Origin: Hyphomonadaceae bacterium TMED5
GTDB lineage: Bacteria > Pseudomonadota > Alphaproteobacteria > Caulobacterales > Hyphomonadaceae
DNA: 32,000 nt
NCBI GenBank assembly: GCA_002173095.1
Contig: NHBK01000020.1
Coordinates: forward strand, 30,423 to 62,422
Direction: 5' to 3'
A program made the position numbers and the translations under genes. Shown piece by piece: positions 10,830 through 32,000 of this stretch. Numbering within the stretch: position 1 is the stretch's first letter; each line of letters begins with the position of its first letter. The notes under the pieces are model-generated. The model worked only from the letters and a program-made list of their open reading frames with translations. It searched no databases and was not told the origin of the DNA.

Positions 10830-10850
10830 GGCAGGCTCTCTTTCTGACGT

Positions 10851-11560: not shown

Positions 11561-11562
11561 GG

Positions 11563-12453: not shown

Positions 12454-12496
12454 GTGCGCTCTGCTGCAGGTATCTGGCACCGAATTTCCCATTGCG

Positions 12497-12778: not shown

Positions 12779-12944
12779 TGGTCTTCTCCGTGGCCTTAAG
12801 GCGTTCGGCGAGGCGTCCCGCTCGCTCCCCGGAGCGCCGAAGCGCAAGCAGGAACAGGAGCACGGCGAGGACAATGGCGCCGTTGCGCAGCGCCGCCCGC
12901 ATCCACGGGGCGGCGGCGATCCCGGTGAACAGGGCGGCGATCAT
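12687..12944 (-). CDS. i-spanin-like (Rz-like) N-terminally anchored protein
   Basis: 85 aa with an N-terminal TM ('GAIVLAVLLFLLAL') and a charged helical tail ('RAGRLAERLKATEKTNDVQRRMLEAAARR'). ATGA overlap with the endolysin stop. Contains the start of the lipoprotein gene in another frame. Confidence 0.5.
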   Translation of the reverse strand: MIAALFTGIAAAPWMRAALRNGAIVLAVLLFLLALRRSGERAGRLAERLKATEKTNDVQRRMLEAAARRPRSRDDLADRLRNGRF

Positions 12945-13615: not shown

Positions 13616-13672
13616 GGAGTCCTCCGAAAACGAGTTTCCGGCCCCTCGCAGGGCTCGGTGCGTTCGCCGCTC

Positions 13673-13743
13673 GGGAAGGTCCACTGGACCTTCCCGTCTG
13701 CCTGTCAGGCAGACCACGGCTCACCCCGCCACGAGGGCGGGTG
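13673..13743. repeat. three tandem palindromes/hairpins in the holin-like/endolysin intergenic region
   Basis: GGGAAGGTCCA-C-TGGACCTTCCC (13673-13695, perfect), GTCTGCCTG-T-CAGGCAGAC (13696-13714, perfect), and CAC(C)CCGCC-ACGAG-GGCGGGTG (13722-13743, one bulge). Confidence 0.8.
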
Positions 13744-17800: not shown

Positions 17801-18592
17801 TCGCCTTGGCAGACACCTCGACGCCCGGCCGCACCTTGCAGGAGCCCGCCCGCAGATCGTCGCCGAACCAGGCGACGACGAGGCTGACGCTTTCGACCGC
17901 CGGGGCCATCGCCTGAAGCCGGTCGAGCGCCTCCACCATGTCGGTGGAGTCGGCCAGCGCGTTCAGGTTCTCCGCTCGCGTCGCGCCGCCATCGGTCTTG
18001 CGGATCGCCTGCGTCGCATAGGTGAACTCTCCCGAGGCCGGGATCATGGTGACGGCGCGGGTCAGCCCCTCGGCCGTGTCGGGATCGGCCAGCGGGCGAA
18101 ACACCTCGAAGGAGAATTGCGGCAGGCGGTTGCCATAGGCGGAGAGCGCGAGTTCCTCGAAGACCACATAGGCGGTGCCGCGATAGGCGGGTGTGCTGGC
18201 CGCACCCATCTTCGCCGCGATGAACGGGTCCGCGGTCTGGGTCTCGTCGCCCGGATACCAGCGCCAGGTGACGCCGGAGAGGTCCATCGGCTTACCGTCG
18301 GCCCAGATGCGCCCGATGCCGGTGATTGGCCCCTCGCACAAGGCCACCGCGAAGCTGGCATAGTACAGATACTCGGTGGTCTTGACCTTGCCGCCCCCAC
18401 CACCCTTGCCGCCGCCCTGCGTCGTGGTCTTGGTTTCCTCGCGGAAATCCGTCGCCCAGATGATGTTGCCGCCCATGCGCATCCGTCCGTAGAGCCGCGG
18501 GATGACCGCGCCTTCGGTGGCGGAGGTGATACGCAGCGTGTCGAGCCGCGCGCCCTCGATGCGCCGGCCGCGCCGAGGACAAGCGTTGCCAT
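14819..18592 (-). pseudogene. RcGTA g15-like baseplate/host-specificity 'megatron' protein, disrupted by two frame changes
   Basis: ATG 18592, 9 nt after the g14 stop, gives 'MATLVLGAAGA'. Homology then continues in the -1 frame ('IEGARLDTLRITSATEGAVIPRLYGRMRMGGNIIWATDF...') to about 15810. It then returns to the original frame ('ASLTRAVVFGAPDALLMDLPQL...TVTLTF*', ORF 14819-15862). Confidence 0.75.
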
Positions 18593-18601: not shown

Positions 18602-19090
18602 TCAGCGTTGCGGAAACAGGAAAGCGAAGGCGATGCGCCGCCGCCAGGCTTGCGTCAGCGGTTCCTCGATCACGCCGAGCCGCTCGTAGGCGTGGAGGAA
18701 GGTGGCGGGGCCCGTCAGGATCCCGACATGCTTGGCGATCGCGCGGGCCTTCATGCGGAAGAGCACCAGTGCGCCGGGACCGGCCTCGGCGGGCGACACC
18801 TCGATCATCATTCGTCGCGCGCCCTCGGCCAGTACCTCGCGCGGGCCGGTCTCGCCCCAATCGCGGCTGTAGGGCGGGATCGGGAACGGCTCTGGACCCA
18901 CGACCTCGCGCCAGACGCCCCGGGCGAGGCCGAGGCAGTCGCAGCCGACGCCGCACAGGCTGGCCTGGTCGTGGTACGGTGTGCCGAGCCACGCGCGCGC
19001 AGCCGGAATTACTCGCTCAGGATCAGCTGCAGCCTTGGGTGCCGTCGTGGGCGCCGCCTTGCCATTCCGCGGTATTTGTGGCGTCACCAT
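18602..19090 (-). CDS. RcGTA g14-like NlpC/P60 cell-wall peptidase
   Basis: 'ARAWLGTPYHDQASLCGVGCDCLGLARGVWREVVG' (catalytic Cys) and 'KHVGIL...FLHAYE' (His). The N-terminus is about 20 aa longer than I expect for this family. Confidence 0.85.
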   Translation of the reverse strand: MVTPQIPRNGKAAPTTAPKAAADPERVIPAARAWLGTPYHDQASLCGVGCDCLGLARGVWREVVGPEPFPIPPYSRDWGETGPREVLAEGARRMMIEVSPAEAGPGALVLFRMKARAIAKHVGILTGPATFLHAYERLGVIEEPLTQAWRRRIAFAFLFPQR

Positions 19091-19123
19091 GGGTTTGACT
19101 GCCGTGCCTTGAGGGTTATCGAG

Positions 19124-20011
19124 ATGAACTTTACTGGTCTGTCCGCCTTTCCAATCACCCCGGCGACCATGGACGGGCGCGTTCAGACCGACGCGCTTGT
19201 CCGGGTGCTGGAGCGGTTGCGGCGGCCCGATCTTGGTTCGGTCGGCCTGCTAGGCAGCACCGGCACATTCGCGTATCTGACGCGCGCAGAACGACGCCGG
19301 GCGGTGTCTGTGGCGGCTGATGTGCTGGGCAGCAGTGTGTCGCTGATGGTCGGGGTCGGAGCGCTGCGCACCGACGAGGCCTGTGCATTGGCCCGCGATG
19401 CGGCTGAGGCTGGGGCAAATGCTGTGCTGCTGCCTGCGGTCAGCTACACGCCTCTGACTCAGGATGAGGCCTTCGCCCATTACAGCGCCGTTGCGACCGC
19501 AAGCGATCTGCCGCTGTGCATTTACAACAATCCCAGCACCACGCATTTCAACTTCGACGTCGCGCTAATACAGCGACTGGCGCAGGTACCCCGGATCACT
19601 GCAATCAAGATGCCGTTGCCCGCGCAAGGCAATCTCGCCAGCGATCTGGCCCGGCTGCGCAGCACGCTGCCTGCAGACTTTGCCATTGGCTACAGCGGGG
19701 ACTGGGGCTGCGCCGAGGCGCTGCTGGCCGGTGCGGATACGTGGTATAGCGTGATTGGCGGGATCCTCCCCGAGATCGCGTTGCGGCTGACTGCGGCGGC
19801 GATGGCAGGCAATGCGGCGGAGGCCCGCCGGATTGATGAAGTGCTTGCCCCGCTCTGGGCACTCTTCAAAGCCCATGGCTCGCTGCGGGTGGTTTATGCG
19901 ATGGCGCGGCAGATGGGCCTGACCGACTGCGACCCTCCCCGCCCAATCCTGCCGCTGGACGACGCGGCGTGCCGCGAAATTGCCGCGGCGACCGAACCTC
20001 TGGCTCGCTAA
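19124..20011 (+). CDS. dihydrodipicolinate synthase/N-acetylneuraminate lyase (DapA) family class I aldolase, specificity unknown
   Basis: 295 aa with 'LLGSTGTFAYLTRAERR', 'LCIYNNPSTT' and the Schiff-base Lys in 'ITAIKMP'. Opposite strand to all flanking phage genes. Confidence 0.85.
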   Translation: MNFTGLSAFPITPATMDGRVQTDALVRVLERLRRPDLGSVGLLGSTGTFAYLTRAERRRAVSVAADVLGSSVSLMVGVGALRTDEACALARDAAEAGANAVLLPAVSYTPLTQDEAFAHYSAVATASDLPLCIYNNPSTTHFNFDVALIQRLAQVPRITAIKMPLPAQGNLASDLARLRSTLPADFAIGYSGDWGCAEALLAGADTWYSVIGGILPEIALRLTAAAMAGNAAEARRIDEVLAPLWALFKAHGSLRVVYAMARQMGLTDCDPPRPILPLDDAACREIAAATEPLAR

Positions 20012-20020
20012 GCGCTCCTC

Positions 20021-20905
20021 TCACAGCACGCCTCCATCATGACCGCCGTCCTTGGTGGCGTAGCGCAGCGCGGCATCCTGGCCGGCGATGTGCGGGAAGC
20101 CGCGGAAGTTGACGGTGTTGGCGAACTTCGCGCCGCAGGTCTCCATCCGCTTGTCGCAGCCTGCATTGATCGTGAAGCCGTCGCCCTCGGCGATCGCGCG
20201 CACCGGCGCTTCGAGCAGCGTCAGCACGGCGATGCCGTCGGCAATGTCATGGCCCAGCACCTCGGTGCGCCGGCCGGCATTGGCGCCGCTGGTCCATTCG
20301 ATAGTGCCGAAAGTGAACCAGCCAGAGGCGAACCCACCAAGCCCCGAGGCGGTGAAGGCCCGGTCGCGCAGCAGATCGATGACGGCACCCGCGCCCTTGA
20401 AGACGGGGTCCTCCAGATCGACGCCGCAGCGTGCATCGCCGAGCGCGGCATCACAGGTCGCCTGGAAGGTCCGCCCGACCGTCTGGCCGAGGACATGCGC
20501 GAGCGAGCGGACCTCTGCCACGAAGGCCAGCCGCCCCCGCCGGATCTGGCCGATGGCGCCGCGGCGCATCAGCACGCGCTGGCCGGTGTCGGCCCAGTTC
20601 ACCCGCCAGACCTCGACCTCGGCATTGTCCCAGCGGCCGTCGAGGATGTCGGTCTCGGTGATCCGATCAGAGGTCAGCACGCCCTCGGCGTCCTGCGCAT
20701 CGACCGAGAGGTCGGAGCCCGAGCGGACCTCGGAGGCTGTCAGCCCGCTCTCGGGCTCGAAGTCGGTGCCGTCGAAGGTCAGCGTGCGGTCATGATCGGT
20801 GAAGCCGAAGGTGACGCCATCGGCGCGGCTGATCCGCCAGCACCAGGCGAGCGTCGTCGTGCCCTCGTCGAGATGAGCCAGCAGGGCGGGAGCGAGGGTC
20901 TTCAT
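20021..20905 (-). CDS. RcGTA g13-like distal tail protein (DUF2163/BR0599 family)
   Basis: 'LAHLDEGTTTLAWCWRISRADGVTFGFTDHDRTLTFDGTDFEPESGLTAS' and 'FRGFPHIAGQD'. ATGA overlap with the g12 stop. Confidence 0.85.
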   Translation of the reverse strand: MKTLAPALLAHLDEGTTTLAWCWRISRADGVTFGFTDHDRTLTFDGTDFEPESGLTASEVRSGSDLSVDAQDAEGVLTSDRITETDILDGRWDNAEVEVWRVNWADTGQRVLMRRGAIGQIRRGRLAFVAEVRSLAHVLGQTVGRTFQATCDAALGDARCGVDLEDPVFKGAGAVIDLLRDRAFTASGLGGFASGWFTFGTIEWTSGANAGRRTEVLGHDIADGIAVLTLLEAPVRAIAEGDGFTINAGCDKRMETCGAKFANTVNFRGFPHIAGQDAALRYATKDGGHDGGVL

Positions 20906-21528
20906 CGGCGCAGTTCCACGAGCGGGATGGTGGTGATGGAGCCGAGCCGCTCGAGGTCGAGCGTCACGTCGAGCACGTCGGTGTCGAAGCGGACCGGGAC
21001 GTCGAAGACAAAGCCTGCGGTGATCGCGATGCCAGCGCCGGGCGCGGCGCTGAAGGTGACGAGGCCGGTGGTGGCGCCGACCGACCAGCCCGAGGGTTGG
21101 GGTGTGCCGTTCAGGGCGATGGTCACCGTTCCCGCGACGGGCTTGGCTATAGAGCGCGTCCAGGACTGCGCCCCGGAAGTGTAACGCTTCACCAGCTGGA
21201 ACGCGGTCGTCGCGCCGTCGCCGGTACCGATGATCTGGTCGGTGGGCCCAGGCGTGCCGGAGGGCAGACAGGACTTGTGGTCACCCCAGTCCTTGAAGCG
21301 GAACCCATGCAGGCGACCGTTGCGCGCCTCGAAGAAGGCGACGACCGCCGCCAGATCGTCCGCGCGGCGAATGCCGTAGGCGACGTCATAGCGGCGGCGC
21401 GAGTTGGCCCAGCTGGCGTTGCGCTCCTCGTCGCCCGAGGCGAGCTCGACGATCTGGGTGCGGCGCTCCGGGCCGCCGCGCGCGCCCCGGCTGATGTCAT
21501 CCGGAAACCGGACCTCGTGGAACGCCAT
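20902..21528 (-). CDS. RcGTA g12-like distal tail protein (DUF2460/TIGR02217 family)
   Basis: 'MAFHEVRFPDDISRGARGGPERRTQIVELASGDEERNASWANSRRRYDV...FFEARNGRLHGFRFKDW'. The start overlaps the tape-measure stop (TGATG). Confidence 0.85.
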   Translation of the reverse strand: MAFHEVRFPDDISRGARGGPERRTQIVELASGDEERNASWANSRRRYDVAYGIRRADDLAAVVAFFEARNGRLHGFRFKDWGDHKSCLPSGTPGPTDQIIGTGDGATTAFQLVKRYTSGAQSWTRSIAKPVAGTVTIALNGTPQPSGWSVGATTGLVTFSAAPGAGIAITAGFVFDVPVRFDTDVLDVTLDLERLGSITTIPLVELRR

Positions 21529-23840
21529 CACATGCCCCTCCGCCCGAGCGACACGGCGCGGGCGATGTCGGCCGCGATCTGCGTGCGCGATTGCCGGAAG
21601 CTCTCGGCGTCGCGGGCCATAATGGTGACGTTGATCCCGCCGCCCGCGCCGTAGCTCTGCGCCTCGCGCCGCGACAGCACCCTCTCGCCGCGCTGCAGGA
21701 TCGCGGGCACCTCGTCGTGTCGAAGTCCGGCCATGCCGCCGCCATGCATCCGGGGCGCGGCGGCGAAGGCCATCGCCGGGACCATGCGCGAGGGTCCGGC
21801 CGATCCGACCATCCCGCCCGCATGCAGGACGTTGGCGAAGATGCCGCCAGCACCGGAGAACACGCCGGAGAGCGCATTGGCGATCGGCCCGAGGATGAAG
21901 CGCCGCGCCGCGAGCTGGGCGAGATCGGCCAGCAGCGAGGTGACGAGGTCGCGGAAGTTCAGCTTCCCGGTCTTCACGAACTGGCCCACCGCGTTCTCGG
22001 CCGACTGGAACGCGCCGACGAGGCTCTGGCCGATATCGCCGCCGATGTCGCGCGCCTTGCTGGCATAGACGGAGAGCGCCGTTGTGACCGCCCGCCAACC
22101 GGTGACGGCCGCGCCGGTGGCCTCGGTCAGCGCATCGGCACTGGCCTCGTCGGTCCCGCGCACCGCATCGCGCAGCGCCTGCCAGCTTTCCAGTGGCGCG
22201 CGGGCCCCTTCGGCCAGATCGCGCGCGGCGCCCCGGTAGACATTCGCGGACTCTAGCGCCCGGGCGGCTGCCTCGGGCAGGCCAAGATCGGGCGCGGTCA
22301 GCGGGTTGTCCTCGAAGGCCCGGTCGAACGCCGCCTGCGCGGCGGTGGTCGCTGCCGTCGCCGCGCCCTCGAAGCGGTTCTCGATCTCGCCTAGGTCGAG
22401 GTCGGGCACCAGCGAGATGCGCCGCTCCGATCCGAGGGCTTCGAGCCCCTGGTTGATCCCGCCGATGAAGCCGTTGATGCGCGAGACCACGCCGTTCAGC
22501 ATCGCCTCGACACCGTCGACCAGGCTGTTGGCCGCCTGGAACGCCAGATCGCCAATGGCGGCGGGCAGCAGACCCCAGATCGCCTTGATCGCCTCGTAGG
22601 CCCCCTCGAACGTGTTCGCCGCCGTGTTGCCGAAGGCAACGACGCTCTCGATGGCGCTCTGCATGCCCGACGCGGCGTCGGCCTTCAGGTCGAAGAACAT
22701 CGCCGTGGCGGCGGCGCCCGCCGCAGCCGCGCCCATCCTGATCCGCTCCCAGACCTCGACCGCGAGGTCCTTCAAGGGCGACATCGCCTCGCCGAACCCA
22801 CCCGCACCTGAGACGAGGCGGGTGAACTGGTAGACAAGCTCTCCCGCGCCAACGACCAGCGCCCCGATCCCGGTGCGAATCAGCGCTCCGCGCAGCACGA
22901 CCAGCGCCGTGGCGAGGCCACGGACCGAGAGCGCGGCAGCGGCCATGCCGGCGATCCAACGTCCCGCGAGGAACGCGGCGAAGGTGGCGGCATAGGTCGT
23001 CAGGCGGCCGATGTTGTCGAAGAGGCCGCGGATCGCGATGCCGAGCGGCCCGGTGCGGCTGGCGACCGCCGCCATGGCGTTGGCGACGGCTTCCAGCGCA
23101 GGCGCTGCTGCGACAGCTAGTTGGTTCGACAGCCCGCGCCAGATCAGCCCGAGCCGGGAGATCGCGTCGTTCGTGCGTTCGATCTGGTCGGCATCCTGCT
23201 CCGAGACGACTACCCCGAAGGCGAGGACGTCCTCCGTCGCCTGGCGCAGCGTCGCGGTGTCGATCCGGCTCATGGCGATGGAGCCTTCCTCGCCGAAGAG
23301 CTGACCCGCGACGGCGGCGCGCTCTGCGGCAGGCACGAAGTTCTCGATGGCGGCGTTGATCGCACCCACGCGCTGGTCCAGAGGCAGGGCGATCAGCTCG
23401 TTGGCCGACAGCCCGAGCCGGTCGAGCGCGTCAGCGGCAGGGCCGGTCCCGGCCGCCGCTTGGCTGAGACGGCGCGTCAGATCCTTCGTTGCCTGCTCGA
23501 TCCCGGACATCGACACGCCCGCCAGCTCGCCCGCGCGCTCCAGCGTCTGGATCGAGGCGACGGTGGTGCCGAGCGACTGCGCGAGCTTGGCCTGCGCATC
23601 GACCGTTTGCAGGCCGGAGCGGATCATCGCCACGCCAGCGGCGGCAGCGGCCGCTACGGCGGCGGCGGATGCGACAGCAACACGCCGCGAGAAGGCTGCG
23701 AGCCTCGCATTGGCCGCCTCCATCTCGCGGCTCAGCCGTCCGAAGCCGCGGGATCCGGCTTCGCCCACGCCTTCCAGTTCCGCGCGCACCTGCCGTCCGC
23801 CCACGGCCGCGAGGCGGACGCTGACCCTCTTCTCAGCCAT
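21528..23840 (-). CDS. tail tape measure protein (770 aa)
   Basis: Long Ala/Gly-rich helical protein in the canonical position after the chaperone pair. N-terminal 'KLAQSLGTTVASIQTLERAGELAGVS...ATKDLTRRL' is typical of TMP N-domains. Confidence 0.85.
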   Translation of the reverse strand: MAEKRVSVRLAAVGGRQVRAELEGVGEAGSRGFGRLSREMEAANARLAAFSRRVAVASAAAVAAAAAAGVAMIRSGLQTVDAQAKLAQSLGTTVASIQTLERAGELAGVSMSGIEQATKDLTRRLSQAAAGTGPAADALDRLGLSANELIALPLDQRVGAINAAIENFVPAAERAAVAGQLFGEEGSIAMSRIDTATLRQATEDVLAFGVVVSEQDADQIERTNDAISRLGLIWRGLSNQLAVAAAPALEAVANAMAAVASRTGPLGIAIRGLFDNIGRLTTYAATFAAFLAGRWIAGMAAAALSVRGLATALVVLRGALIRTGIGALVVGAGELVYQFTRLVSGAGGFGEAMSPLKDLAVEVWERIRMGAAAAGAAATAMFFDLKADAASGMQSAIESVVAFGNTAANTFEGAYEAIKAIWGLLPAAIGDLAFQAANSLVDGVEAMLNGVVSRINGFIGGINQGLEALGSERRISLVPDLDLGEIENRFEGAATAATTAAQAAFDRAFEDNPLTAPDLGLPEAAARALESANVYRGAARDLAEGARAPLESWQALRDAVRGTDEASADALTEATGAAVTGWRAVTTALSVYASKARDIGGDIGQSLVGAFQSAENAVGQFVKTGKLNFRDLVTSLLADLAQLAARRFILGPIANALSGVFSGAGGIFANVLHAGGMVGSAGPSRMVPAMAFAAAPRMHGGGMAGLRHDEVPAILQRGERVLSRREAQSYGAGGGINVTIMARDAESFRQSRTQIAADIARAVSLGRRGM

Positions 23841-24500
23841 GGGACTGATCCATCTGTTCGTTGAGTTTGGTGACCATCACCGCCTCGATGACGGGCAGCA
23901 GTTCGGCCATGGCGAGCGGCGGCACGCCGAGCGCGCCACCGAGCGCCAGCGCCGCCGACATGTCCCAGCCGATCACCGCGCCGGGCAGGACACGCAGCTG
24001 ACCGCCGAGGCGCCCGACGAGGTCCCAGACCTGCCAACCTTCATGCGTCAGGGGCCGGTTCAGCCGCGCCGGGCAGTCTTCGCAGATTTGCGCGCAGGCT
24101 TCGCAGTAGCGGTCGCCCCCGCCGAAGGACCATTCGGCGAGAGCGCGGAGGCGTTTTTTTCCTGTTCCAGCAGCAGGCCCTTGGAGACGTAGGTCAGCTG
24201 GAACGCCTCGAAGATCGGCCAGACGTCGAGCAGCGCGTCGATGGCCTCGGGGCTCGGGTCGATGGGCTTGCCGTCGGCATCGCCGATGCCCTCCCAGCCG
24301 AGCACAGCCCGTCGCGCCAGCGCCTTGGCGAAGGCGACGGCGCGCTCCTCGTCGGAAGCCTCCTCGGGCACCGCCTCGACGGCGGGGTCGCTGCGCGTCG
24401 CGACCATCAGGGCGGTCGTCAGCGGGCGCAGTTGCACCCGGACGCCGGGGGCGAGGTCATGCCAGCGCGGCGCGTTGGTCAGGTCGAGCGTCAGCATCAA
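23833..24500 (-). CDS. tail assembly chaperone -1 frameshift fusion product (GT-like)
   Basis: After a slip at A_AAA_AAC the -1 frame stays open for about 108 codons ('KRLRALAEWSFGGGDRYCEACAQICEDCPARL...AELLPVIEAVMVTKLNEQMDQSHG*'). It stops at 23833-23835, overlapping the TMP ATG (23840). Confidence 0.65.
24060..24500 (-). CDS. tail assembly chaperone (G-like, zero-frame product)
   Basis: 146 aa, acidic, positioned between the tail tube and TMP. Contains the slippery run 94 nt before its stop. Confidence 0.7.
   Translation of the reverse strand: MMLTLDLTNAPRWHDLAPGVRVQLRPLTTALMVATRSDPAVEAVPEEASDEERAVAFAKALARRAVLGWEGIGDADGKPIDPSPEAIDALLDVWPIFEAFQLTYVSKGLLLEQEKNASALSPNGPSAGATATAKPARKSAKTARRG
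24154..24160 (-). promoter_or_regulatory. programmed -1 ribosomal frameshift slippery heptamer A_AAA_AAC (A7 run)
   Basis: Plus strand T7 at 24154-24160. On the coding strand 'cag gaA AAA AAC gcc' is in X_XXY_YYZ phase with the chaperone zero frame. Confidence 0.65.
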
Positions 24501-25438
24501 TACGTCTCCACGTCATTCACGAGGGTGGCGGTGCACATCCGGCCGACGACGCTGTCGCGCGCGGCCTGCCAGTCGAATGTCGCCTGGACGCCCTGCGGCC
24601 CGGAAATCTCGATCCGTGGACGCGGCAGGTAGACGGCGTGCACGGTGAAGGAGAAGCTTTCGCCTGAAGGCAGGACGTAGGCGAATTCCATCTCGCAGGC
24701 CTCGCCGTTGATCGCCTGCGTCACCAGCGTCTGGTCGGCGAAGCGCACCTCGATCCGGCCCGTCAGCGCGGCAATGGATGGATCCGCGCCATCGATGCGG
24801 CCGTCCGAGCGGATGGTCTCGATCCGGTCGAGGTTGTTGGCGTAGGTGATCTCGGCCGAGACCACATTGCCGAGGGCGGTGCCGTTCCGGGTGATCGCCC
24901 CGTTGAAATGGCCGAAGCGCTTCAACTCCAGTGCGGCGGGCGTTCCGGCACTGGTCGTGGTGCCGACCGTCTCGCCCTGCGCCACCAGCCGCGCGGTCGC
25001 GGTGAGCAGGCCCGAGCGCTGCATCTGCCAGGTGATCTGGTCGAGCACGCAGCCCGAGTACATCGCATAGCGGGGCACCTCGGGCATGCCGGTCTCGATC
25101 GACATCGAGGGCAACGTCCAGGACCCCGACTGAAATTCGTGGCTGTACGGGGCCTCCGCGCCCGTGGTCGTGGGCGCGCCGAAGGCTGCCTTCAGCCAGA
25201 AGCCGAACGCCTCGGCGTCCAGCGGCACGACGACGTCGCCGTCGGCCGTCACGGCGTCCTTGATCGGCGCTAGCGGATCGCGGCCGTAGCCGAGAAGCTC
25301 CGAATTCAGCAGCGGCTGCTCCGCGCCGAGCGACGTGCTGGCGAAGGGCATGCGGGTGAAGCCGCTGACGGGCGGCGTTCCATAGGTCGTCTCGAACGCA
25401 AGCGCCATCAGCGCTCGCGCCCCTTGGGCTCGTGCCAT
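24497..25438 (-). CDS. major tail (tube) protein
   Basis: 313 aa and beta-rich, immediately upstream of the chaperone pair with an ATGA overlap. Called on position and composition, not on a motif I can name. Confidence 0.65.
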   Translation of the reverse strand: MARAQGARALMALAFETTYGTPPVSGFTRMPFASTSLGAEQPLLNSELLGYGRDPLAPIKDAVTADGDVVVPLDAEAFGFWLKAAFGAPTTTGAEAPYSHEFQSGSWTLPSMSIETGMPEVPRYAMYSGCVLDQITWQMQRSGLLTATARLVAQGETVGTTTSAGTPAALELKRFGHFNGAITRNGTALGNVVSAEITYANNLDRIETIRSDGRIDGADPSIAALTGRIEVRFADQTLVTQAINGEACEMEFAYVLPSGESFSFTVHAVYLPRPRIEISGPQGVQATFDWQAARDSVVGRMCTATLVNDVETY

Positions 25439-25462
25439 GTTCGTCTCCTGTGGTCGGTTGGG

Positions 25463-25879
25463 TCAGGCCAGCGGGTCGGCCGTGGAATAGTGCAGCACGA
25501 CCGGGATAACGGCGGCCTTCAGACTCGCCGCGCCCTCGACCGGCAGATCGACCGGGCGCGGGGCTTCGGCCTCGACCCAGTCGCAGAACCCGCCCAGCGT
25601 CCGGTCGGCGGCGAGCGCTGCGCCGATGCTGGCGGTCAGCGTGTCAAAGGCGGCGTCGCGATCGGCACCCTGAACGACCGCCTCGATCTCGGCTCGGTGC
25701 TGGTAGTGATAGCGCAGCGGCGACAGCGTGACTTCGGGCGCACCTGGTTCGCCATCGCGCAGGATCATCAGGCCCTCGACCGGCATGCGCTCGGGCAGCA
25801 CGTCCCCGCGCAGAGCGGTGGCGGGCAGCGCCGAGAGCCGCGCGTGCAGCGCGACGAGGATGGTTTCGCGAGGTGTCAT
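25463..25879 (-). CDS. tail completion/terminator-like protein (DUF3168-like)
   Basis: 138 aa starting 'MTPRETILVALHARLSALPATALRGDVLP...'. Size, position directly upstream of the tube gene and overall pattern resemble DUF3168 tail-completion proteins. The rest of ORF 25463-27172 is antisense to mer genes. Confidence 0.55.
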   Translation of the reverse strand: MTPRETILVALHARLSALPATALRGDVLPERMPVEGLMILRDGEPGAPEVTLSPLRYHYQHRAEIEAVVQGADRDAAFDTLTASIGAALAADRTLGGFCDWVEAEAPRPVDLPVEGAASLKAAVIPVVLHYSTADPLA

Positions 25880-26301
25880 GGGTCGGCCGAGTTGGAAATC
25901 GCGTCGAGCACCGGACAATCGGGGACTTCGGCGCCCGAACACCTGGATGCAGTTGTAGCGAGGACGGATTCGATACGCCGAAGATCCGCGATCCTCGCGC
26001 GGACATCGGCAAGGTGCCGCTCCGTCCGTTCCTTGACCTCGGCGCAGGTCGGCGCGGCGCCGTCGCCGAGCCCCATCAGCCCGCGGATGTCCTCCATCGA
26101 GAACCCGAGTTCGCGGGCGCGCAGGATGAAGCGGAGGCGTGTGGCGTGTGCGGCGGAATAGACCCGGTAGCCGGCGTCCGTGCGGGGCGGGTCGGGCAGC
26201 AGGCCGGTCTTCTCGTAATAGCGGATCGTCTCGATGTTGCAGCCGGTCGCCCGGGCCAGGTCGCCGCGTGTGAAGCCGCTCTCGCGCTCGTGATCGGTCA
26301 T
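25876..26301 (-). CDS. merR: MerR Hg(II)-responsive transcriptional regulator
   Basis: Start at 'MTDHERESGFTRGDLARATGCNIETIRYYEKTGLL' (MerR HTH). The three metal-binding Cys lie in 'PTCAEV' and 'RCSGAEVPDCPVL'. Divergent from merT. Confidence 0.9.
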   Translation of the reverse strand: MTDHERESGFTRGDLARATGCNIETIRYYEKTGLLPDPPRTDAGYRVYSAAHATRLRFILRARELGFSMEDIRGLMGLGDGAAPTCAEVKERTERHLADVRARIADLRRIESVLATTASRCSGAEVPDCPVLDAISNSADP

Positions 26302-26315
26302 GGGCAAGTTTCCTC

Positions 26316-26346
26316 TTGAGCCTGTAGTTGCTACAGACCCTACACC
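26316..26346 (+). promoter_or_regulatory. mer operator/promoter (PmerT) with 19-bp spacer
   Basis: -35 TTGAGC (26316-26321), a 19-nt spacer containing the perfect dyad CTGTAG-TTG-CTACAG (26322-26336), and -10-like TACACC (26341-26346). The over-long spacer with a central dyad is the MerR-family hallmark. Confidence 0.75.
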
Positions 26347-26377
26347 CATCGTCAATCACAGACGAGAGGTGCGCGAC

Positions 26378-26767
26378 ATGGCGCTGACAGACGACAGAAC
26401 GGACAGCACGGGCGCGGATCGCCCCGCCCGAAAGGGCTGGCTCGCGGCGGGCGGTGTGGTGGGCGCCTTTCTCGCCTCGGCCTGCTGCATCGGGCCGCTG
26501 GTGCTTCTGACTCTCGGCATCTCGGGCGCCTGGATCGGCAACCTGACGGCTCTGGAGCCTTACAAGCCGATCTTCGCCGTGATCGCGCTCGGCTTCATCG
26601 CGGCGGGTTTCTGGCAGGTCTATTTCCGCAAGCCAACCGTCTGCGAACCCGGTTCCTACTGCGCAAGGCCAGCATCGGCGCGCATCACCAAGTCGGCTCT
26701 CTGGGCCTCCCTGATCCTCGTTCTCGCAGCCCTCACCATCGACTGGTGGGCCCCGCTTCTCTACTGA
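26378..26767 (+). CDS. merT: MerT mercuric ion transporter
   Basis: 'FLASACCIGPLVLLTLGISGAWIGNLTALEPYKPIF' (TM1 CC pair) and the cytoplasmic pair 'VCEPGSYC'. Collinear with Tn21 MerT as I recall it. Confidence 0.9.
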   Translation: MALTDDRTDSTGADRPARKGWLAAGGVVGAFLASACCIGPLVLLTLGISGAWIGNLTALEPYKPIFAVIALGFIAAGFWQVYFRKPTVCEPGSYCARPASARITKSALWASLILVLAALTIDWWAPLLY

Positions 26768-26785
26768 CCCCGAAAGGACATCCAC

Positions 26786-27091
26786 ATGAAGAAGATCCTT
26801 GCACTCGCCTTGTTCGGCCTGACCGCCGTTGTGCCGATCACCGCCATCCCTGTTGCCGCGCAGACCGTCGCCGCCGAGCAGACCGTCACCTTCGCGGTGG
26901 ACAACATGACCTGCGCGCTCTGCCCAGTCACCGTGAAGCGTGCGATGGAGGGCGTCGCGGGCGTGCGCGCCGTCGAGATCGACTTCGATGCCCGCACCGC
27001 CACGGTGATCTTCGACACCGCCGCGACGAGCGCCGACGCCATCGCGACCGCGTCGGCCAATGCAGGCTACCCGGCGCGTGTCGCGGGCTGA
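26786..27091 (+). CDS. merP: MerP periplasmic mercury-binding protein
   Basis: Signal peptide plus HMA motif 'NMTCALCPVTVKRAM'. SD AAAGGA upstream. Confidence 0.9.
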   Translation: MKKILALALFGLTAVVPITAIPVAAQTVAAEQTVTFAVDNMTCALCPVTVKRAMEGVAGVRAVEIDFDARTATVIFDTAATSADAIATASANAGYPARVAG

Positions 27092-27095
27092 CGAG

Positions 27096-27329
27096 ATGAC
27101 CGAGCAGTCCGACCGCAAGCTGATCGCGACAGGGATCGTCGGCACCGTCATCGCGGCGCTCTGCTGCTTCACTCCGGTGCTGGTGGTGCTTCTGGGTGCC
27201 GTGGGCCTGTCGGCCTGGCTGGGTTGGCTCGACTACGTTCTGCTGCCCGCGCTCGCCTTTTTCGTCGCGCTGACCGTGTACGCGGTCTGGAGACGGCAGC
27301 GGCGCCAGACCACTCGAACGGATGGATGA
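27096..27329 (+). CDS. merF: MerF two-TM mercury transporter (lacks the C-terminal CC pair)
   Basis: 'ALCCFTPVLVVLLGAVGLSAWLGWLDYVLLPALAFFVALTVYA' matches the MerF core. Ends '...WRRQRRQTTRTDG' with no second Cys pair. Confidence 0.8.
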   Translation: MTEQSDRKLIATGIVGTVIAALCCFTPVLVVLLGAVGLSAWLGWLDYVLLPALAFFVALTVYAVWRRQRRQTTRTDG

Positions 27330-28758
27330 CTTGATGAAAGACGATTGCTGCGCGCCCAAGGGCGATTTCGACCTTGCCGTGATCGGCGCCGGATCGGCCG
27401 GGTTCTCGGCCGCGATCACCGCCGCCGAGGGAGGCAAGCGCGTCGCGCTGATCGGCCATGGCACCATCGGCGGGACCTGCGTGAACGTGGGCTGTGTGCC
27501 CTCCAAGACGATGATCCGGGCCGCGGAAGCCCTGCACGGTGCGCAGACAGCACATCGGTTCCCGGGCCTGAACAGCGAGGCGCAGGTCGCCGACTGGTCG
27601 GCGCTGATTGCGGCCAAGGACGATCTTGTCGCGACACTGCGCCAGAAGAAGTACGCCGATCTGCTGCCGGGCTACGGCGGTGTGACCTATCTCGACGAGG
27701 GTCCGGCGCGTCTCGTCCTCGGCGGGGTCGAGGTCGGCGGGCGCAGGATCACGGCTCCCAAGGTGATCGTCGCGACCGGTGGCCGACCCGCCGTGCCCGA
27801 CATCCCTGGGATCCAGGACGCACCAACGCTCGACAGCACGTCGCTGCTGGAGCTGGACCGGTTGCCCGAAAGCCTGATCTTCCTCGGCGGCGGCTACATC
27901 GGCGTGGAGCTGGCGCAGATGATGGCGCGGATGGGCACCCGCGTCACCATTGTCTGCCGCTCGCGCCTGCTGCCGCGCACAGAGCCGGAGGTGTCCCGGG
28001 CGCTGACGGAGACGCTGCGCGCCGAGGGCGTCGCGGTTGTCGATGGCGCGACCTACGACGCCGCACGGCGCGACGGGGCCCGTGCGGTCCTGACGGTGAC
28101 GGTGGACGGCGCAGACCGCGATCTGACGGCCGACCGCCTCGTCCTGACGACGGGACGCGCAGCCAACACCGAGGGGCTGGGCCTCGCGGAGATGGGCGTC
28201 GAGACCGACGCGCGTGGCGCGATCCGGGTGGGCGACGACATGCAGACCACGAAGGCCGGCATCTTCGCGGCGGGCGATGTGACCGACCGCGACCAGTTCG
28301 TCTACATGGCCGCCTATGGCGCCAAGCTCGCGTCCCGCAACGCCGTTCTGGGCGGGGCGGAGCGCTACGACAACGCCGCGATGCCGTGGGTGGTGTTCAC
28401 CGATCCGCAGGTCGCCGGCGTCGGGCTGACCGAGGCGCAGGCGCGCGCCGCGGGTCATGACGTCAAGACCAGTGTGCTGACGCTCGACAACGTGCCCCGC
28501 GCGCTCGCCGCCCGCGACACGCGCGGCCTGATCAAGCTCGTCGCGGACCGGGCGACCGACCGCCTCCTGGGCGGCGTGATCATGGCGCCGGAGGGAGCCG
28601 ACAGTGTCCAGACGCTCGCCATGGCGCTCAAGTTCGGCATGACGACAAAGGCGCTCGGCGAGACGATCTTCCCCTATCTGACCACGGTAGAGGGGCTGAA
28701 GCTCGCCGCGCAGACCTTCGACAAGGATGTCGCGAAGCTGTCGTGCTGCGCGGGGTAA
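27322..28758 (+). CDS. merA: mercuric reductase MerA, core enzyme without N-terminal HMA (NmerA) domain
   Basis: 'AVIGAGSAGFSAA' (FAD), redox-active 'GGTCVNVGCVPSK', and C-terminal 'KLSCCAG'. Alternative start at ATG 27334. The N-terminal tail is 'MDDLMKDDCCAPKG'. Confidence 0.92.
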   Translation: MDDLMKDDCCAPKGDFDLAVIGAGSAGFSAAITAAEGGKRVALIGHGTIGGTCVNVGCVPSKTMIRAAEALHGAQTAHRFPGLNSEAQVADWSALIAAKDDLVATLRQKKYADLLPGYGGVTYLDEGPARLVLGGVEVGGRRITAPKVIVATGGRPAVPDIPGIQDAPTLDSTSLLELDRLPESLIFLGGGYIGVELAQMMARMGTRVTIVCRSRLLPRTEPEVSRALTETLRAEGVAVVDGATYDAARRDGARAVLTVTVDGADRDLTADRLVLTTGRAANTEGLGLAEMGVETDARGAIRVGDDMQTTKAGIFAAGDVTDRDQFVYMAAYGAKLASRNAVLGGAERYDNAAMPWVVFTDPQVAGVGLTEAQARAAGHDVKTSVLTLDNVPRALAARDTRGLIKLVADRATDRLLGGVIMAPEGADSVQTLAMALKFGMTTKALGETIFPYLTTVEGLKLAAQTFDKDVAKLSCCAG

Positions 28759-28808
28759 CCCGAGCCGTCGGTTTCGTGGCTGCCGAGCAAGATTGCGCAT
28801 CGATGCGA

Positions 28809-29438
28809 TCACAACCTACCCCCCACCCAGTTCGCCACGATCAGCCCCGGCACGCTGTCCAACGCCCGGTCTGCATCCCGCGCCAGATCCAGCCGCTTCG
28901 GCAGCTTGACCTGCGGCACCAGCAGGAAGATCGGCGCAGTGACCTTTCCGCGCCCGGTCTTCGACCGCGACACCACCGCCTGGCCTTTCGTGTTCAGCCG
29001 CCCCTCGGCGACCAGCAGGCTGGGGCCCGTCCGGCGATAGACGAAACGCAGGCGGAGGCCGCGTCGCCGCTCCCATTCACCGGGGGTGATCCGGCCGCCG
29101 CGCAGGGATTTGCCCGCCGCGGGCAGCGGGATCGCCAGCCAGAACCCGTTCTTCGATCGGATCAGCGGCCCGGTGTCATGCGCACCGACGATTACCGGCG
29201 CCTTCGACCAGACCAGCGCCGCAGCCTCAAGGCTCTCGCCCGACCTCGGGAAGTTCTGGCTCCGGATCGAGTTGGCGAGCCGTGTACCAAGCCCCGCGCC
29301 GGTGATCTGCAACCGCCACGCCGTCTTCAGCCCAGTCCCGGCCTCGCGAATGGCGGCGGTGACGGCCCGTTCACCCGCCGCGACCTCGGCCGCCATCATC
29401 GCGACGATGTCGGGATCGATGTCGAGCTTCAGTTTCAC
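28809..29438 (-). CDS. phage neck/head-completion protein (DUF6441- or HK97 gp10-like, tentative)
   Basis: 209 aa with an ATGA overlap to the upstream head-tail joining gene. Positioned between head and tail modules. The family assignment is from memory of similar prophage proteins only. Confidence 0.5.
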   Translation of the reverse strand: MKLKLDIDPDIVAMMAAEVAAGERAVTAAIREAGTGLKTAWRLQITGAGLGTRLANSIRSQNFPRSGESLEAAALVWSKAPVIVGAHDTGPLIRSKNGFWLAIPLPAAGKSLRGGRITPGEWERRRGLRLRFVYRRTGPSLLVAEGRLNTKGQAVVSRSKTGRGKVTAPIFLLVPQVKLPKRLDLARDADRALDSVPGLIVANWVGGRL

Positions 29439-29746
29439 GCGGGCCTCAGGTCGACGGTCCAGACCAGCCGCTCGCGGTCGCGGACCGGCTCGCCCTGTAT
29501 GAGGAAGGCCTCGCCCTCGATCTCGATGCGGTCGCCGGGACGCGGGTTCGCCACCTCTGCGGCGCGCAGGTCGATCCGGGTGGTCTCGGACCAGAGCCGC
29601 GTATCGCCGAAGTCCGTGATCGCATCGGCACGCCGGGCGACCACGCGCACCAGCACGGGTGTACCGCCGTCGGCGATGTAGACCGCGTCCCGGCCGATGT
29701 TCGGATCGGCGAAGAGCGCGCCGATGGCGGCGGCGAAGGCCGACAT
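29435..29746 (-). CDS. head-tail joining/head-closure protein (tentative)
   Basis: 103 aa: 'MSAFAAAIGALFADP...RPGDRIEIEGEAFLIQGEPVRDRERLVWTVDL'. Small beta-barrel-like pattern in the canonical position after the decoration gene. Confidence 0.5.
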   Translation of the reverse strand: MSAFAAAIGALFADPNIGRDAVYIADGGTPVLVRVVARRADAITDFGDTRLWSETTRIDLRAAEVANPRPGDRIEIEGEAFLIQGEPVRDRERLVWTVDLRPA

Positions 29747-30081
29747 CAGAACGTCGCGTTCAGGCGCACCCGGCCGATGGTGTCGCCGGCGCCGCTCGCC
29801 ACCGCCTCGACGGCCGCGCCGATGAGGGTGTTGTCGGTCGCGACGGTCGTGGTGCGCTTGTTGGTGTCGTCCCAATAGACCTTGGCGCCAACCGTCCACG
29901 CCTGGGAGCCGACCTTGGTGATGTCGAACACGCCGACGAGCGCGGTCTCGACGGGCTCGCCAATGGCGGCGGCACCCGCGGCGATGCCGAAGATGGAGCC
30001 GACGAGCAGGCCATCGCCGGAGGCGACGGCATAGGGCGCGGTCAGGGTGATGGTGTTGCCGGGCTGAACGTAGTTTTTCAT
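29746..30081 (-). CDS. DUF2190-family capsid decoration/cement-like protein
   Basis: 'MKNYVQPGNTITLTAPYAVASGDGLLVGSIFGIAAGAAAIGEPVETALVGVFDITK...AKVYWDD' matches the DUF2190 pattern, directly downstream of the capsid gene. Confidence 0.72.
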   Translation of the reverse strand: MKNYVQPGNTITLTAPYAVASGDGLLVGSIFGIAAGAAAIGEPVETALVGVFDITKVGSQAWTVGAKVYWDDTNKRTTTVATDNTLIGAAVEAVASGAGDTIGRVRLNATF

Positions 30082-30094
30082 GGGGAGGATCCTT

Positions 30095-30128
30095 TGGGAA
30101 AGACAAAGGGCGGCCCATGAGGACCGCC
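30095..30128 (-). terminator. intrinsic terminator/attenuator-like hairpin after the capsid gene
   Basis: On the minus-strand transcript: GGGCGGUCC-UCAU-GGGCCGCCC (9-bp stem with one G.U), followed by UUUGUCUUUCCC. On the plus strand the same position is a C/A mismatch, so the stem is better in the phage sense. Confidence 0.45.
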
Positions 30129-30158
30129 CGTGTGTCAGGGTTCAGCATGGGGTGCGGG

Positions 30159-32000
30159 TTACGCGCCTGGGTTCTTGTAGAGGCCGCGCCAGTCGATCGC
30201 CTTGGCGCCGAAGTCGAGGCGGCACTTGATCTCGACGCCGTCGACGTCGAAGCCGTTGCGGGTCTCGATGTAGGCGCCCTGCTGGCCCTCGAGATAGGCG
30301 TACTCGATGGTGTCGATCTGGTTCGGGCTGGCCGCCAGATACCAGGCGGTCTCGCTGGCGGCGTCGAGGCGCGGCTCGCTGATCGGCGCGAGGGTCCGGA
30401 TCGACTGCGGTACCACGCTGGACGTCGCGGCGGGCACGAGGTTCTGGGCGACCAGCTGCTCGGCCTTCAGTTCGAGCGAGGCGGGCACGATCAGGAAGGC
30501 GGGCCGGACGTTCAGCACCGTCTTCTTGTCGAGGCCCGTCTGCTTGGCCATCGCGGCGCGGGCCGCGCCGACGCTGCTGACATCGAGCGCCGCGCCGGTG
30601 CCTGCGAGGTTCTTGTGGGTTGTGTGGAAGAGCGCGTTGCCGTCGGCCATCGCCGGGTTGGCGGTGATGATCCCCCAGACCACATCCGACTCCAGCTGGG
30701 CGATGGAGTTGCCGTACATCGCCGGGATCCGGGTGAAGGCATCGAGATCGTCGTTGATCAGCGTCTGGCGGGTGATGGCGACCACCCGGCCATAGGTCTT
30801 GACCTTGTAGCTCTCCTTGCTCTCACCCAGCGTCCCGCGCTTGAACTCGCCGCTCTCGCCCACTTCCAGCAGCTGGGGCGCTTCGCCGAGCTGCACCCGG
30901 TGCATGGCCTTGAAGTCGGTGGCGAGCACCTGGCGGCAGAACAGCATGAAGGTGCGGGGATAGGCCTCGTAGGCCTGCCGGAGGGTCTTGTTGGTGACCG
31001 CCGACAGGATCTCGGGGAAGTCCGAGGTCGAGTGCAGCGCGCGCGTCGCCACCTCGTCGCGCGACAGACCTCGCGTGTTGACCCCGGCATTGCCGAGGCT
31101 TTCGCGGGCCAGTTCCAGCAGCGTCATGCCGCGATACTGGCGGGCGGCGTCCTCCAGCTGGAACAGCGTCGGGCTGTAGCGATGCAGGAGCGCGTTCGCC
31201 ACGGCATCGCGGCGGGTGATGCGCTCGTCCCGGCCGCCGAGCGGGACGGAGACATGGGGGAATGTCCTAGTCTCGTCCGACTTGGCCGCGACCTGGTCGA
31301 GGATCAGGCGGCGGGACTCGTCGACGCTGATGCCGCGCTTGACCAGATCCTCGGCGAAGCTGCGCTCGAGGTTCAGGCGGCCCGCCAGATCGTAGATGGT
31401 CGAGACGCGATCGCGCTCGGCCACGCGAGCGCGCGTGGCGACGGCTTCGGTGTCGGGCGCGGGAGCTGCCTGCGTCTTCGGCTGGCTGCGGGTTTCGACT
31501 GCGGCGCCCTTCGGGTCGGGCGCAGCCGCATTCGGCTCGGTCATGGGGGTGTCCTCGGTTTCGACCGGCTCGGTCGGCTGGGTGGTGGCGGGGGTTGCGG
31601 CGTCGCGCGCCGGGGTCTGGGTCTTGTCCGTCATCGGGAATGCTCCTTGCGGTGTGGGGGCGTCCCGGCGGTGAAGGACGCAGTCGTGAAGGGGATGCTG
31701 GGCGCGGAAGCCCGCGGCGGGGTCGGCGCCGACCGCGACAGCGGAGACCTCGAACGGCGTCCAGTCCACCGCGCGCCAGAGCTCGCGGGCGGCCTCGGGC
31801 TTCGAGACCTCGAAGCGGTGGACCTGGTAGCCGATGGAGACCGCGCGGATGTGGCCCGCCTGGATGTCGCGCCAGATCGGCTCGACGTCGGCGCGCTCGC
31901 TGATCCGCACCAGCGCGATTCCGCGGCCGTTCTCGATCCGGGCCGAACCCGGCACGACCGAACCGATCACCGCATCCAGCGTGTCGAGCTCGTGCACCTT
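30159..32000 (-). CDS. prohead protease / major capsid protein fusion (5' end beyond window)
   Basis: The frame is open to the window edge. The N-terminal part shown ('HIRAVSIGYQVHRFEV...WTPFEVSAVAVGADPAAGFR') resembles the C-terminus of HK97-type prohead proteases. A Pro/Thr/Ala linker and a ~400-aa capsid-like domain ending '...DFGAKAIDWRGLYKNPGA' follow. Confidence 0.8.
   Translation of the reverse strand, partial: KVHELDTLDAVIGSVVPGSARIENGRGIALVRISERADVEPIWRDIQAGHIRAVSIGYQVHRFEVSKPEAARELWRAVDWTPFEVSAVAVGADPAAGFRAQHPLHDCVLHRRDAPTPQGAFPMTDKTQTPARDAATPATTQPTEPVETEDTPMTEPNAAAPDPKGAAVETRSQPKTQAAPAPDTEAVATRARVAERDRVSTIYDLAGRLNLERSFAEDLVKRGISVDESRRLILDQVAAKSDETRTFPHVSVPLGGRDERITRRDAVANALLHRYSPTLFQLEDAARQYRGMTLLELARESLGNAGVNTRGLSRDEVATRALHSTSDFPEILSAVTNKTLRQAYEAYPRTFMLFCRQVLATDFKAMHRVQLGEAPQLLEVGESGEFKRGTLGESKESYKVKTYGRVVAITRQTLINDDLDAFTRIPAMYGNSIAQLESDVVWGIITANPAMADGNALFHTTHKNLAGTGAALDVSSVGAARAAMAKQTGLDKKTVLNVRPAFLIVPASLELKAEQLVAQNLVPAATSSVVPQSIRTLAPISEPRLDAASETAWYLAASPNQIDTIEYAYLEGQQGAYIETRNGFDVDGVEIKCRLDFGAKAIDWRGLYKNPGA

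Follow-up and report, generated by a model that had tools for sequence, protein, structure and literature searches.

A mer operon as probable moron cargo at a hypervariable gene junction in an alphaproteobacterial siphophage lineage

Plasmids and transposons are the textbook carriers of mercury resistance. Here we describe a merR/merTPFA mercury-resistance operon that lies among the structural genes of a prophage, within a 32,000-nucleotide stretch of Hyphomonadaceae bacterium TMED5 (assembly GCA_002173095.1, contig NHBK01000020.1, positions 30,423 to 62,422), referred to below as the window and numbered from its first letter. The operon (25876-28808) stands between the gene for a DUF6441 protein and the tail terminator gene. 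We consider it highly probable that it is moron cargo, held in a fixed and hypervariable slot at this junction in a widespread temperate siphophage lineage of Alphaproteobacteria. The evidence comes from the occupation of the same junction in close and distant relatives, from the gene content and boundaries of the operon, and from its recurrence in other genomes and metagenomes.

Results

A cargo slot between the DUF6441 and tail terminator genes

The mer operon is bounded on both sides by phage genes on the minus strand. To its right lies the DUF6441 gene (28809-29438; 209 aa; PF20039, 158 bits; phrog_6367 matched over the full length, E = 4e-80), and to its left the tail terminator gene (25463-25879; 138 aa; phrog_4204 matched over residues 1-137, E = 1.1e-41), which is 85-100% identical across relatives. 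Both flanking reading frames are intact, as an earlier, sequence-only reading of the window had stated. The DUF6441 gene follows an FII-like head-tail attachment gene and precedes the terminator, which is the position of gpZ in lambda, and a putative neck or tail-completion role is assigned to its product from synteny, the sole basis for it. Searches of the PDB sequences with the DUF6441 profile and with the terminator returned zero matches, and an AlphaFold2 model of the DUF6441 protein, made from an alignment of 28 sequences 85-96% identical to the query, had a mean pLDDT of 36.2. The DUF6441 family comprises 5622 related protein clusters; the 90%-identity cluster holding the protein from the window has 7062 member sequences.

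We surveyed this junction in 80 genome loci and 80 IMG/VR loci, which were retrieved with a DUF6441 alignment and were, in each collection, the 80 with the DUF6441 protein most similar to that of the window (87-100% identical). Both genes were found in 139 of these loci and, together with the window, Shinella sp. PSBB067 and Paracoccus aminovorans, these give 142 slots. Every one of the 142 slots is occupied, with a gap of 383-3537 bp (median about 1.1 kb) between the two genes, and by blastn the cargo falls into 96 clusters, 75 of which are singletons. Similarity among the loci stops at the flanking stop and start codons, and these breakpoints match those of the window. With conserved core genes on both sides and unrelated cargo at the same position, the DUF6441/terminator junction is a phage accessory-gene hotspot. 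The position of the mer operon, which had been regarded as anomalous for a phage, is not so for this phage family.

The Shinella prophage matches the window at about 90% identity between 12.5 kb (about 12528) and 32 kb. The homology is interrupted precisely at 25873 and 28809, where Shinella has instead a 1.46-kb insert with an ArsR-family regulator and an HMA-domain cation-diffusion-facilitator transporter (HMA-CDF). The slot of P. aminovorans holds a 406-aa protein without recognised function. An inspection by eye of 70 nt on each side in 55 slots with 54 cargo types, which included no gapped or profile search, found no shared junction motif, and an att-like motif was discarded as a candidate because nothing was common to these slots. 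The median GC content of the cargo is 0.54, compared with 0.68-0.73 in the flanking phage genes (21,500-25,500 and 29,000-30,000). The mer cassette, at 0.68, is inside the range of the flanking genes and among the least deviant cargos. Relative to the late genes, 51 cargos are antisense and 33 sense, counting only those with a GC content low enough to trust the longest open reading frame (ORF), as ORF calling is approximate in high-GC cargos.

Metal or ion cargo fills at least 31 of the 142 slots, about one in five. The mer operon occupies eight, a share (8/142) that is biased upward because the relatives were ranked by similarity to the protein of the window and only the best 80 per collection were taken. 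ChrA chromate transporters occupy six slots, two HMA-CDF types five each, and ACR3/SBF-type transporters three; a MerR-family regulator with an ArsP-type permease, an Na/Ca exchanger, a further cation-efflux protein and a SulP permease are also found. Other cargos resemble defence or toxin proteins, including an Aga / pPIWI-associated nuclease, PIN_8, Mrr_cat, RmrA, PD-T4-5, PLD, NERD, NYN, HEPN-RiboL-PSP, RES, Gp49/HigB and M78-HTH. One type pairs a nitrilase with a methyltransferase, and many cargos carry no annotation. In one locus (L133, 6948-10142), an IS3-family (rve) transposase lies beside a 722-aa NERD-like protein in the slot. Another (L162, 6746-9794) contains a four-gene sense set with a GC content of 0.55, encoding PfkB/deoxyribosyltransferase-like, QueC-like and HhH-like proteins, where we take the QueC-like assignment from reading the translation by eye; this set is possibly a DNA-modification system.

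The lineage is broad. Its structural genes are about 87-100% identical at the protein level and about 90% at the DNA level across the surveyed loci L006-L172 and the DUF6441 matches, and its hosts are distributed over Rhodobacterales, Hyphomicrobiales (Shinella, Rhabdaerophilum, Fulvimarina, Aurantimonas) and Rhodospirillales (a Zavarzinia metagenome-assembled genome, MAG), with the reservation that taxonomic assignments of MAGs may be wrong. Such breadth and abundance are unusual for one temperate phage type.

Relatives with an empty site

Relatives in which the two flanking genes abut had been predicted, and they exist among isolated phages as well as among some 26 IMG/VR contigs. Nostoc phage Nsp-JY21 (PP438413.1) and RcKvothe, a member of the Rhodobacter RcC cluster, have no cargo at the junction, and the stop of the DUF6441 gene and the start of the terminator gene share 4 bp. 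For Synechococcus phage Sc-Yong805-1 (OP858991.1) and other RcC phages, an empty site is indicated by the span of the match. The RcC phages are cos siphoviruses with a fused capsid-protease (PMC8601537). In the empty-site phages, which form virions, the order of cement, FII-like, DUF6441, terminator, tube, chaperone and tape measure genes is the same as in the window; they differ in the absence of cargo and in a DUF6441 protein that is just 49-54% identical. Among distant relatives in IMG/VR (DUF6441 42-78% identical), about 26 of 38 junctions are empty, with a gap of at most 16 bp. The remaining 12 are occupied and spread over several separate identity groups, and insertion at this junction must therefore have happened more than once. 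The 4-bp overlap of the DUF6441 and terminator genes most probably represents the ancestral empty state, and the mer operon is, in the manner of a moron, an insertion between genes that are adjacent in relatives.

Nsp-JY21 and OP858991.1 share about 71% nucleotide identity and full structural synteny with the alphaproteobacterial prophage family. Such kinship is unexpected for cyanophages, deposited as these are with Nostoc and Synechococcus as hosts, and makes their true host questionable.

The mer operon and its boundaries

Reading frames and profile searches bear out the earlier description of a complete merR/merTPFA operon within the head-tail joining block of a prophage. The merR gene (25876-26301, minus strand; 141 aa; Pfam MerR, MerR_1 and MerR-DNA-bind) is co-oriented with the phage late genes and divergent from merT (26378-26767; 129 aa; PF02411, 104.7 bits), merP (26786-27091; 101 aa; a periplasmic HMA protein, PF00403), merF (27096-27329; 77 aa; PF11431) and merA (27322-28758; 478 aa; without an NmerA domain), all four on the plus strand and antisense to the late operon. 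The gene set is as first read, and the likely starts were corrected to 26301 for merR, 26378 for merT and 27096 for merF on the basis of annotated plasmid homologues and called genes. The full merR ORF spans 25876-26355. For merF, which has another possible start upstream at 27060, the called genes are either 77 or 89 aa long. The operon lacks merB.

MerA scores above the cutoff of the curated equivalog TIGR02053 (524.5 bits against 454.45) and MerF above that of NF033565 (111.9 bits against 50), and the MerR, MerT, MerF and HMA domains all exceed the Pfam gathering thresholds. The translations contain the CVNVGC redox motif and a C-terminal SCCAG in MerA, a CC pair in the first transmembrane segment (LASACCIGP) together with CEPGSYC in MerT, NMTCALC in MerP and a CC pair (ALCCFTP) in MerF. 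The MerR cysteines stand at APTC...RCSGAEVPDC, that is, APTC plus C-x7-C, a spacing that we take to be closer to CueR than to Tn21 MerR. The operon is complete and apparently functional.

A divergent operator/promoter can be read in the 76 bp between merR and merT (26302-26377). A -35 element TTGAGC (26316-26321) and a -10 element TACACC (26341-26346) are predicted at a spacing of 19 bp, with the perfect dyad CTGTAG-TTG-CTACAG (26322-26336) inside the spacer, and AGAGG lies 8 nt upstream of the merT ATG. A 19-bp spacer containing a dyad is the hallmark of MerR-family promoters. The operator region is fully conserved in three other mer-bearing prophage loci (L006, L007, L014) and has one mismatch each in a fourth (L008) and in a Ruegeria plasmid (98.7%). 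A terminator scan of 25300-29600 predicted none on either strand.

The overlapping and the 50-bp junctions reported in the sequence-only reading were both confirmed. On the left, the TGA of merR overlaps the ATG of the tail terminator gene as ATGA (TCAT at 25876-25879 on the plus strand), and the terminator gene has no obvious Shine-Dalgarno sequence. On the right, the stops of merA (28756-28758) and of the DUF6441 gene (28809-28811) face each other across a 50-bp spacer (28759-28808). This spacer is specific to the phage-borne cassette; similarity to the plasmid copies decays within it, past the merA stop. It contains the 12-bp palindrome CGCATCGATGCG at 28796-28807, which is present as first described and not beyond chance, the window having 15 palindromes of this length against 14.2 +/- 3.7 in shuffled sequence. 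Folding of the spacer showed nothing unusual (z = -0.56). The palindrome was therefore rejected as a recombination site or terminator on its chance frequency, this folding score and the lack of a following T-run.

Recurrence and history of the mer cassette

Both mer junctions are repeated base-for-base in more than 20 independent assemblies, including isolates, MAGs, IMG/VR contigs and JGI metagenomes. The arrangement is found in four genome or MAG contigs, namely an Amaricoccus MAG, Paracoccus shanxieyensis DK398 (L007), a Zavarzinia MAG and Amaricoccus tamworthensis S261 (L014), the other two being L006 and L008. A 27-mer from the merA-DUF6441 spacer matches seven IMG/VR contigs, and in the assembly collection 80 indexed blocks contain the exact MerA. 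At all ten MerA places listed, the order terminator, merR, merTPFA, DUF6441, FII, cement and capsid is the same, so that the arrangement, first thought to be undescribed and unusual, is common in databases. In eight of the nine listed places that extend past the capsid gene, portal and GpA terminase genes follow, L222 being the exception; the sequences of L224 and L225 reach no further than the capsid gene or a little beyond it.

No mer-bearing locus is identical to the window. The identity over aligned spans is 91.9-98.5% in L006-L008, L014 and L216-L225, and 85-89% in some IMG/VR mer loci. Between the window and P. shanxieyensis, the mer and DUF6441 genes are 100% identical and the tube and terminator genes only 91.4%. 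In the comparison with A. tamworthensis, dN/dS is 0.10-0.46 in the mer genes (0.11 in merA), showing that they are under purifying selection. The flanking phage genes have a dN/dS of 0.04-0.12. The dS of the mer genes relative to A. tamworthensis (0.04-0.26) is below that of the flanks (0.32-0.43). Cassette identity between phages with 9%-diverged flanks, together with the lower dS of the mer genes, points to a spread of mer among phages by homologous recombination in the conserved flanks.

In an IMG/VR variant lineage (L086, L087, L090, L096, L098), the mer insert of the slot is only 2125 bp long. Its merR and merA are retained, but most of merT, merP and merF is lost, with the first ~31 codons of merT and the last ~18 codons of merF left, so that the dedicated Hg transporter is gone; the N-terminus of its MerA reads MKDDCAPK, where the window has the Cys pair of DDCCAPK. 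The dS of merR relative to the L096 variant (0.48) is like that of the flanks (0.31-0.51). The junctions are shared even with this lineage and merR has diverged as much as the flanks, which indicates a single old capture of the mer cassette followed by co-divergence; copies 12-15% diverged keep the same two junctions.

The nearest non-phage kin are transposon-free merRTPFA cassettes on Rhodobacterales plasmids. These have the same merR-merTPFA order, are 88-92% identical in nucleotide sequence over the stretch that begins with merR and closes with the merA stop, and occur in Ruegeria sp. SCSIO 43209 (NZ_CP065363.1), Phaeobacter sp. G2 (CP104102.1), Celeribacter indicus (NZ_CP004396.1) and Roseovarius. 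The Ruegeria cassette, whose operator region is the one with 98.7% identity, lacks an adjacent transposase. Its MerR is 90% identical, with the divergence confined to the extreme C-terminus, and ends in ...DAISQP*, whereas the phage MerR ends in ...DAISNSADP*, is three residues longer and has its stop fused to the terminator ATG. The plasmid cassettes lie in a plasmid and not a phage context, and their 3' flank diverges past the merA stop.

Other features of the prophage and its surroundings

The morphogenesis set in the window comprises capsid-protease, cement, FII-like, DUF6441, terminator, tube, chaperone, tape measure, distal tail and endolysin genes, and a gpJ-like gene that is broken. 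All are on the minus strand. Upstream of the DUF6441 gene are the FII-like head-tail attachment gene (about 29435-29746), the cement gene (29746-30081), these two matching PF05354 and PF09956, and a protease-major capsid fusion that runs from 30159 to the window end, with phrog_4523 among the matches; this block spans 29435-31997. Downstream of the terminator follow the tube (24497-25438), the tail assembly chaperone (24060-24500), the tape measure (21528-23840), a phrog_778 tail protein (20021-20905), an NlpC/P60-like protein (18602-19090), the gpJ-like host-specificity protein (phrog_4271), split into 15678-18574 and 14819-15862, and an endolysin/peptidase (12941-13717). No tRNA genes were found in the window. 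The tape measure has 770 aa in the window and 805 aa in other mer-bearing copies (L216-L225), a difference of 35 aa between the gene calls, while blastn offsets imply about 84 bp unmatched near 22108-22118.

Relative to Shinella, where a single frame spans the site, the gpJ-like gene of the window lacks 62 bp, with the junction at about 15811/15812, and is frameshifted by the loss. The near-repeat cACGCGGC / CGCGCGGC lies on either side of the missing segment, and the deletion looks like a genuine slippage event and unlike a sequencing error in a homopolymer. The 62 bp are kept at this site in L089, an IMG/VR contig that bears mer. The prophage copy in the window may have lost infectivity. In L222 (CP067136.1, GCA_028553785.1), an 849-aa GpA terminase-capsid call occupies 8835-11384 and the portal gene is gone. 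This copy, which is homologous to the window only as far as 31413, has apparently decayed by deletion.

A second insert (19001-20020) lies between the NlpC/P60-like and phrog_778 genes and is absent in Shinella and P. aminovorans. It encodes a DHDPS/DapA-family aldolase (ORF about 19121-20011, plus strand; PF00701, E = 7.6e-40), antisense to the tail genes. A second hotspot at this site was considered and rejected, as, among 35 copies made up of 34 loci and the window, just two (the window and L036) carry an insert at 19-20 kb. Positions 1-12500 are host flank with a lower GC content of 0.60-0.66, containing five aldo/keto reductase genes in an unusual cluster with an SDR gene, a CMD/alpha-beta hydrolase fusion, a DUF4405 gene and a gene (phrog_3736) whose product is probably a LysR-type regulator. 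At the DNA level, this flank is most similar to a Pseudosulfitobacter plasmid, at 84% identity.

Discussion

Cargo of a phage lineage or relic of a prophage

The sequence-only reading had set phage-packaged mercury cargo against a decaying prophage kept as a carrier of mer. The two part according to level: at the level of the lineage the operon would be transmissible cargo, and decay is plausible for this copy, as for L222, and not for the lineage. Decay in the strong form, in which an immobile prophage is kept by its host for mer and the phage context is a fossil, is an explanation that we take seriously and judge unlikely. It could draw on the gpJ-like gene, broken in the window between short direct repeats where Shinella has one ORF and L089 keeps the 62 bp, on the loss of the portal by terminase-capsid fusion in the mer-bearing L222, and on the variant lineage that lost merT, merP and merF. 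These losses stand against an arrangement that is 92-99% identical in many genomes and metagenomes of different genera (Paracoccus, Amaricoccus and the Zavarzinia MAG), against the portal and terminase genes that follow in nearly all listed places, and against the low dN/dS of the structural flanks. Furthermore, the identity of the cassette in phages with diverged flanks requires recent exchange among phage genomes. Taken together, these four observations indicate that decay concerns individual copies and not the lineage, and the mer-carrying lineage as a whole appears to keep intact structural genes.

Delivery of mer by a transposon of the Tn21, Tn501 or Tn5053 type, or by an integron-like element, whose ends have since been lost, is in our estimate very improbable. 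Operons for mercury resistance do commonly travel on such elements, and the slot of L133 holds an IS3-family rve transposase. However, neither transposase nor resolvase nor integrase is found in or beside 25876-28808; among the ORFs of 24-30 kb, none is a transposase, resolvase, tnpA/tnpR or tniABQR gene, and every neighbour belongs to the phage structural genes. The cassette ends show neither inverted nor direct repeats (arms at 25880 and 28808), and the repeats within 25300-29500 are scattered, GC-rich and chance-like. The window consequently shows none of the marks of the Tn21/Tn501 (Tn3) and Tn5053 families, namely a transposase or resolvase, terminal inverted repeats and a target-site duplication, and the absence of transposon machinery stated in the first reading is borne out by ORFs, profiles and the repeat search. 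The insert ends in the last merR codons and 50 bp past merA, the nearest plasmid copies likewise lack an adjacent transposase, and some 96 unrelated cargos break at exactly the same gene boundaries without sharing a motif at the junctions. A chimeric assembly of a mer plasmid fragment and a prophage contig, an a priori possibility only, is excluded for practical purposes by the recurrence of both junctions in so many independent assemblies.

Several observations weigh against the operon being working cargo of a transmissible phage. At least two mer-bearing copies, those of the window and L222, are visibly damaged. The window ends inside the capsid gene, so that integrase, att site, early genes, portal and terminase lie beyond view. 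The mer-bearing members are all prophages or metagenome contigs, and the share of mer among the slots is inflated, as described above. Although they pass the Pfam thresholds, MerT and MerP remain below the curated cutoffs (NF010314, 106 bits against 150; TIGR02052, 77.1 bits against 92.55), as does MerR (TIGR02051, 124.9 bits against 150.85), for which CueR is nearly level at 121.6. A generic sigma-70 consensus promoter scan of 25300-29600 gave zero matches, the mer promoter included. Resistance to Hg(II) and induction of the operon by mercury are predictions from sequence only.

A possible course of capture, spread and expression

The moron reading suggests a course of events that might account for these features. 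No signature of transposition or site-specific recombination was found at the cassette, and illegitimate recombination could have captured it in a way that preserved the ATGA overlap. Translation of the terminator would then be coupled to merR, as it was formerly to DUF6441 in the manner of the empty-site phages. From there, homologous recombination in the conserved flanks may have carried the cassette from one related phage to another, and lysogenisation from host to host. In the lysogen, MerR bound to the dyad of the 19-bp-spacer promoter would turn on merTPFA in the presence of Hg(II), in antisense direction to the late operon, which is silent at this stage. Hg(II) would be imported by MerP, MerT and MerF and reduced by MerA to volatile Hg(0), presumably making the lysogen resistant to mercury within a narrow spectrum. 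When the phage grows lytically, the late transcript would have to read through the 2.9-kb insert.

Relation to known systems

A moron in the sense of Juhala and Hendrix is an added unit with its own promoter and terminator and a deviant base composition. The mer operon resembles the classical morons of lambdoid and HK97 phages as an extra transcription unit between genes adjacent in relatives, with expression from the prophage, here predicted, that is independent of late transcription. It differs in having no predicted terminator, in its phage-like GC content and in being a regulated operon of five genes and not a single gene.

Accessory and defence hotspots have been described for P2-like phages and P4 satellites (Rousset et al. 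2022, PMC9122126), and phage hotspots have been annotated systematically (Egorov et al. bioRxiv 10.1101/2024.10.15.618418). The DUF6441 slot shares with the P2/P4 type its conserved core bounds and its many unrelated cargos, including defence-like nucleases and toxins. In contrast, it belongs to an HK97-type alphaproteobacterial siphophage, lies inside the head-tail joining block, is rich in metal and ion cargo and is empty in none of the close relatives surveyed.

Metal-resistance genes among phage structural genes have already been published. Paracoccus prophages carry them, including an ArsB gene antisense to the surrounding structural genes (Decewicz et al., PMC6536676). Like the window, these prophages combine antisense metal-resistance genes in a structural block with near-identical prophages in unrelated strains, and the ACR3/SBF-type transporters found in the DUF6441 slot may be compared with their metal genes. 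The same study lists no mer operon and describes no common hypervariable slot; its prophages PD6 and PD20 may belong to another phage family or use another junction. Mer genes also occur in the records of Salmonella phage SJ1 (OQ595196.1; merA/merC/merP/merT) and of Bacteriophage sp. MT835550.1, but these are only 69-72% identical, belong to other operon types (with merC) and lie on unrelated backbones in other hosts. In the open-access literature we found no description of mer in this slot or of the slot itself, nor any mention of DUF6441.

What the slot might mean for the lineage

In summary, a complete and regulated mer operon rides in a phage structural operon, free of transposons and recurrent, with signs of exchange between phages. 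It is one of about a hundred cargos held at a single gene junction in a lineage of Rhodobacterales, Hyphomicrobiales and Rhodospirillales, which tolerates an insert of 0.4-3.5 kb, often antisense, in the middle of its late operon. For the unannotated single-gene cargos, anti-phage defence is the obvious candidate function. The mer cassette raises the question of temperate phages moving metal resistance between alphaproteobacterial genera, in wastewater and in the sea. We put forward tentatively, as a proposal that has somewhat less than an even chance of holding in full, that the junction is an always-occupied and hyper-diverse hotspot with at least 96 cargo types, in a temperate lineage about 90% identical over at least three alphaproteobacterial orders, with roughly one slot in five devoted to metals and ions (Hg, Cr, Cd/Zn and As-type). 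If the lineage is infectious, the slot might constitute an unrecognised, broad-host-range and transposon-independent route for metal resistance, and at the same time a catalogue of new anti-phage defence genes.

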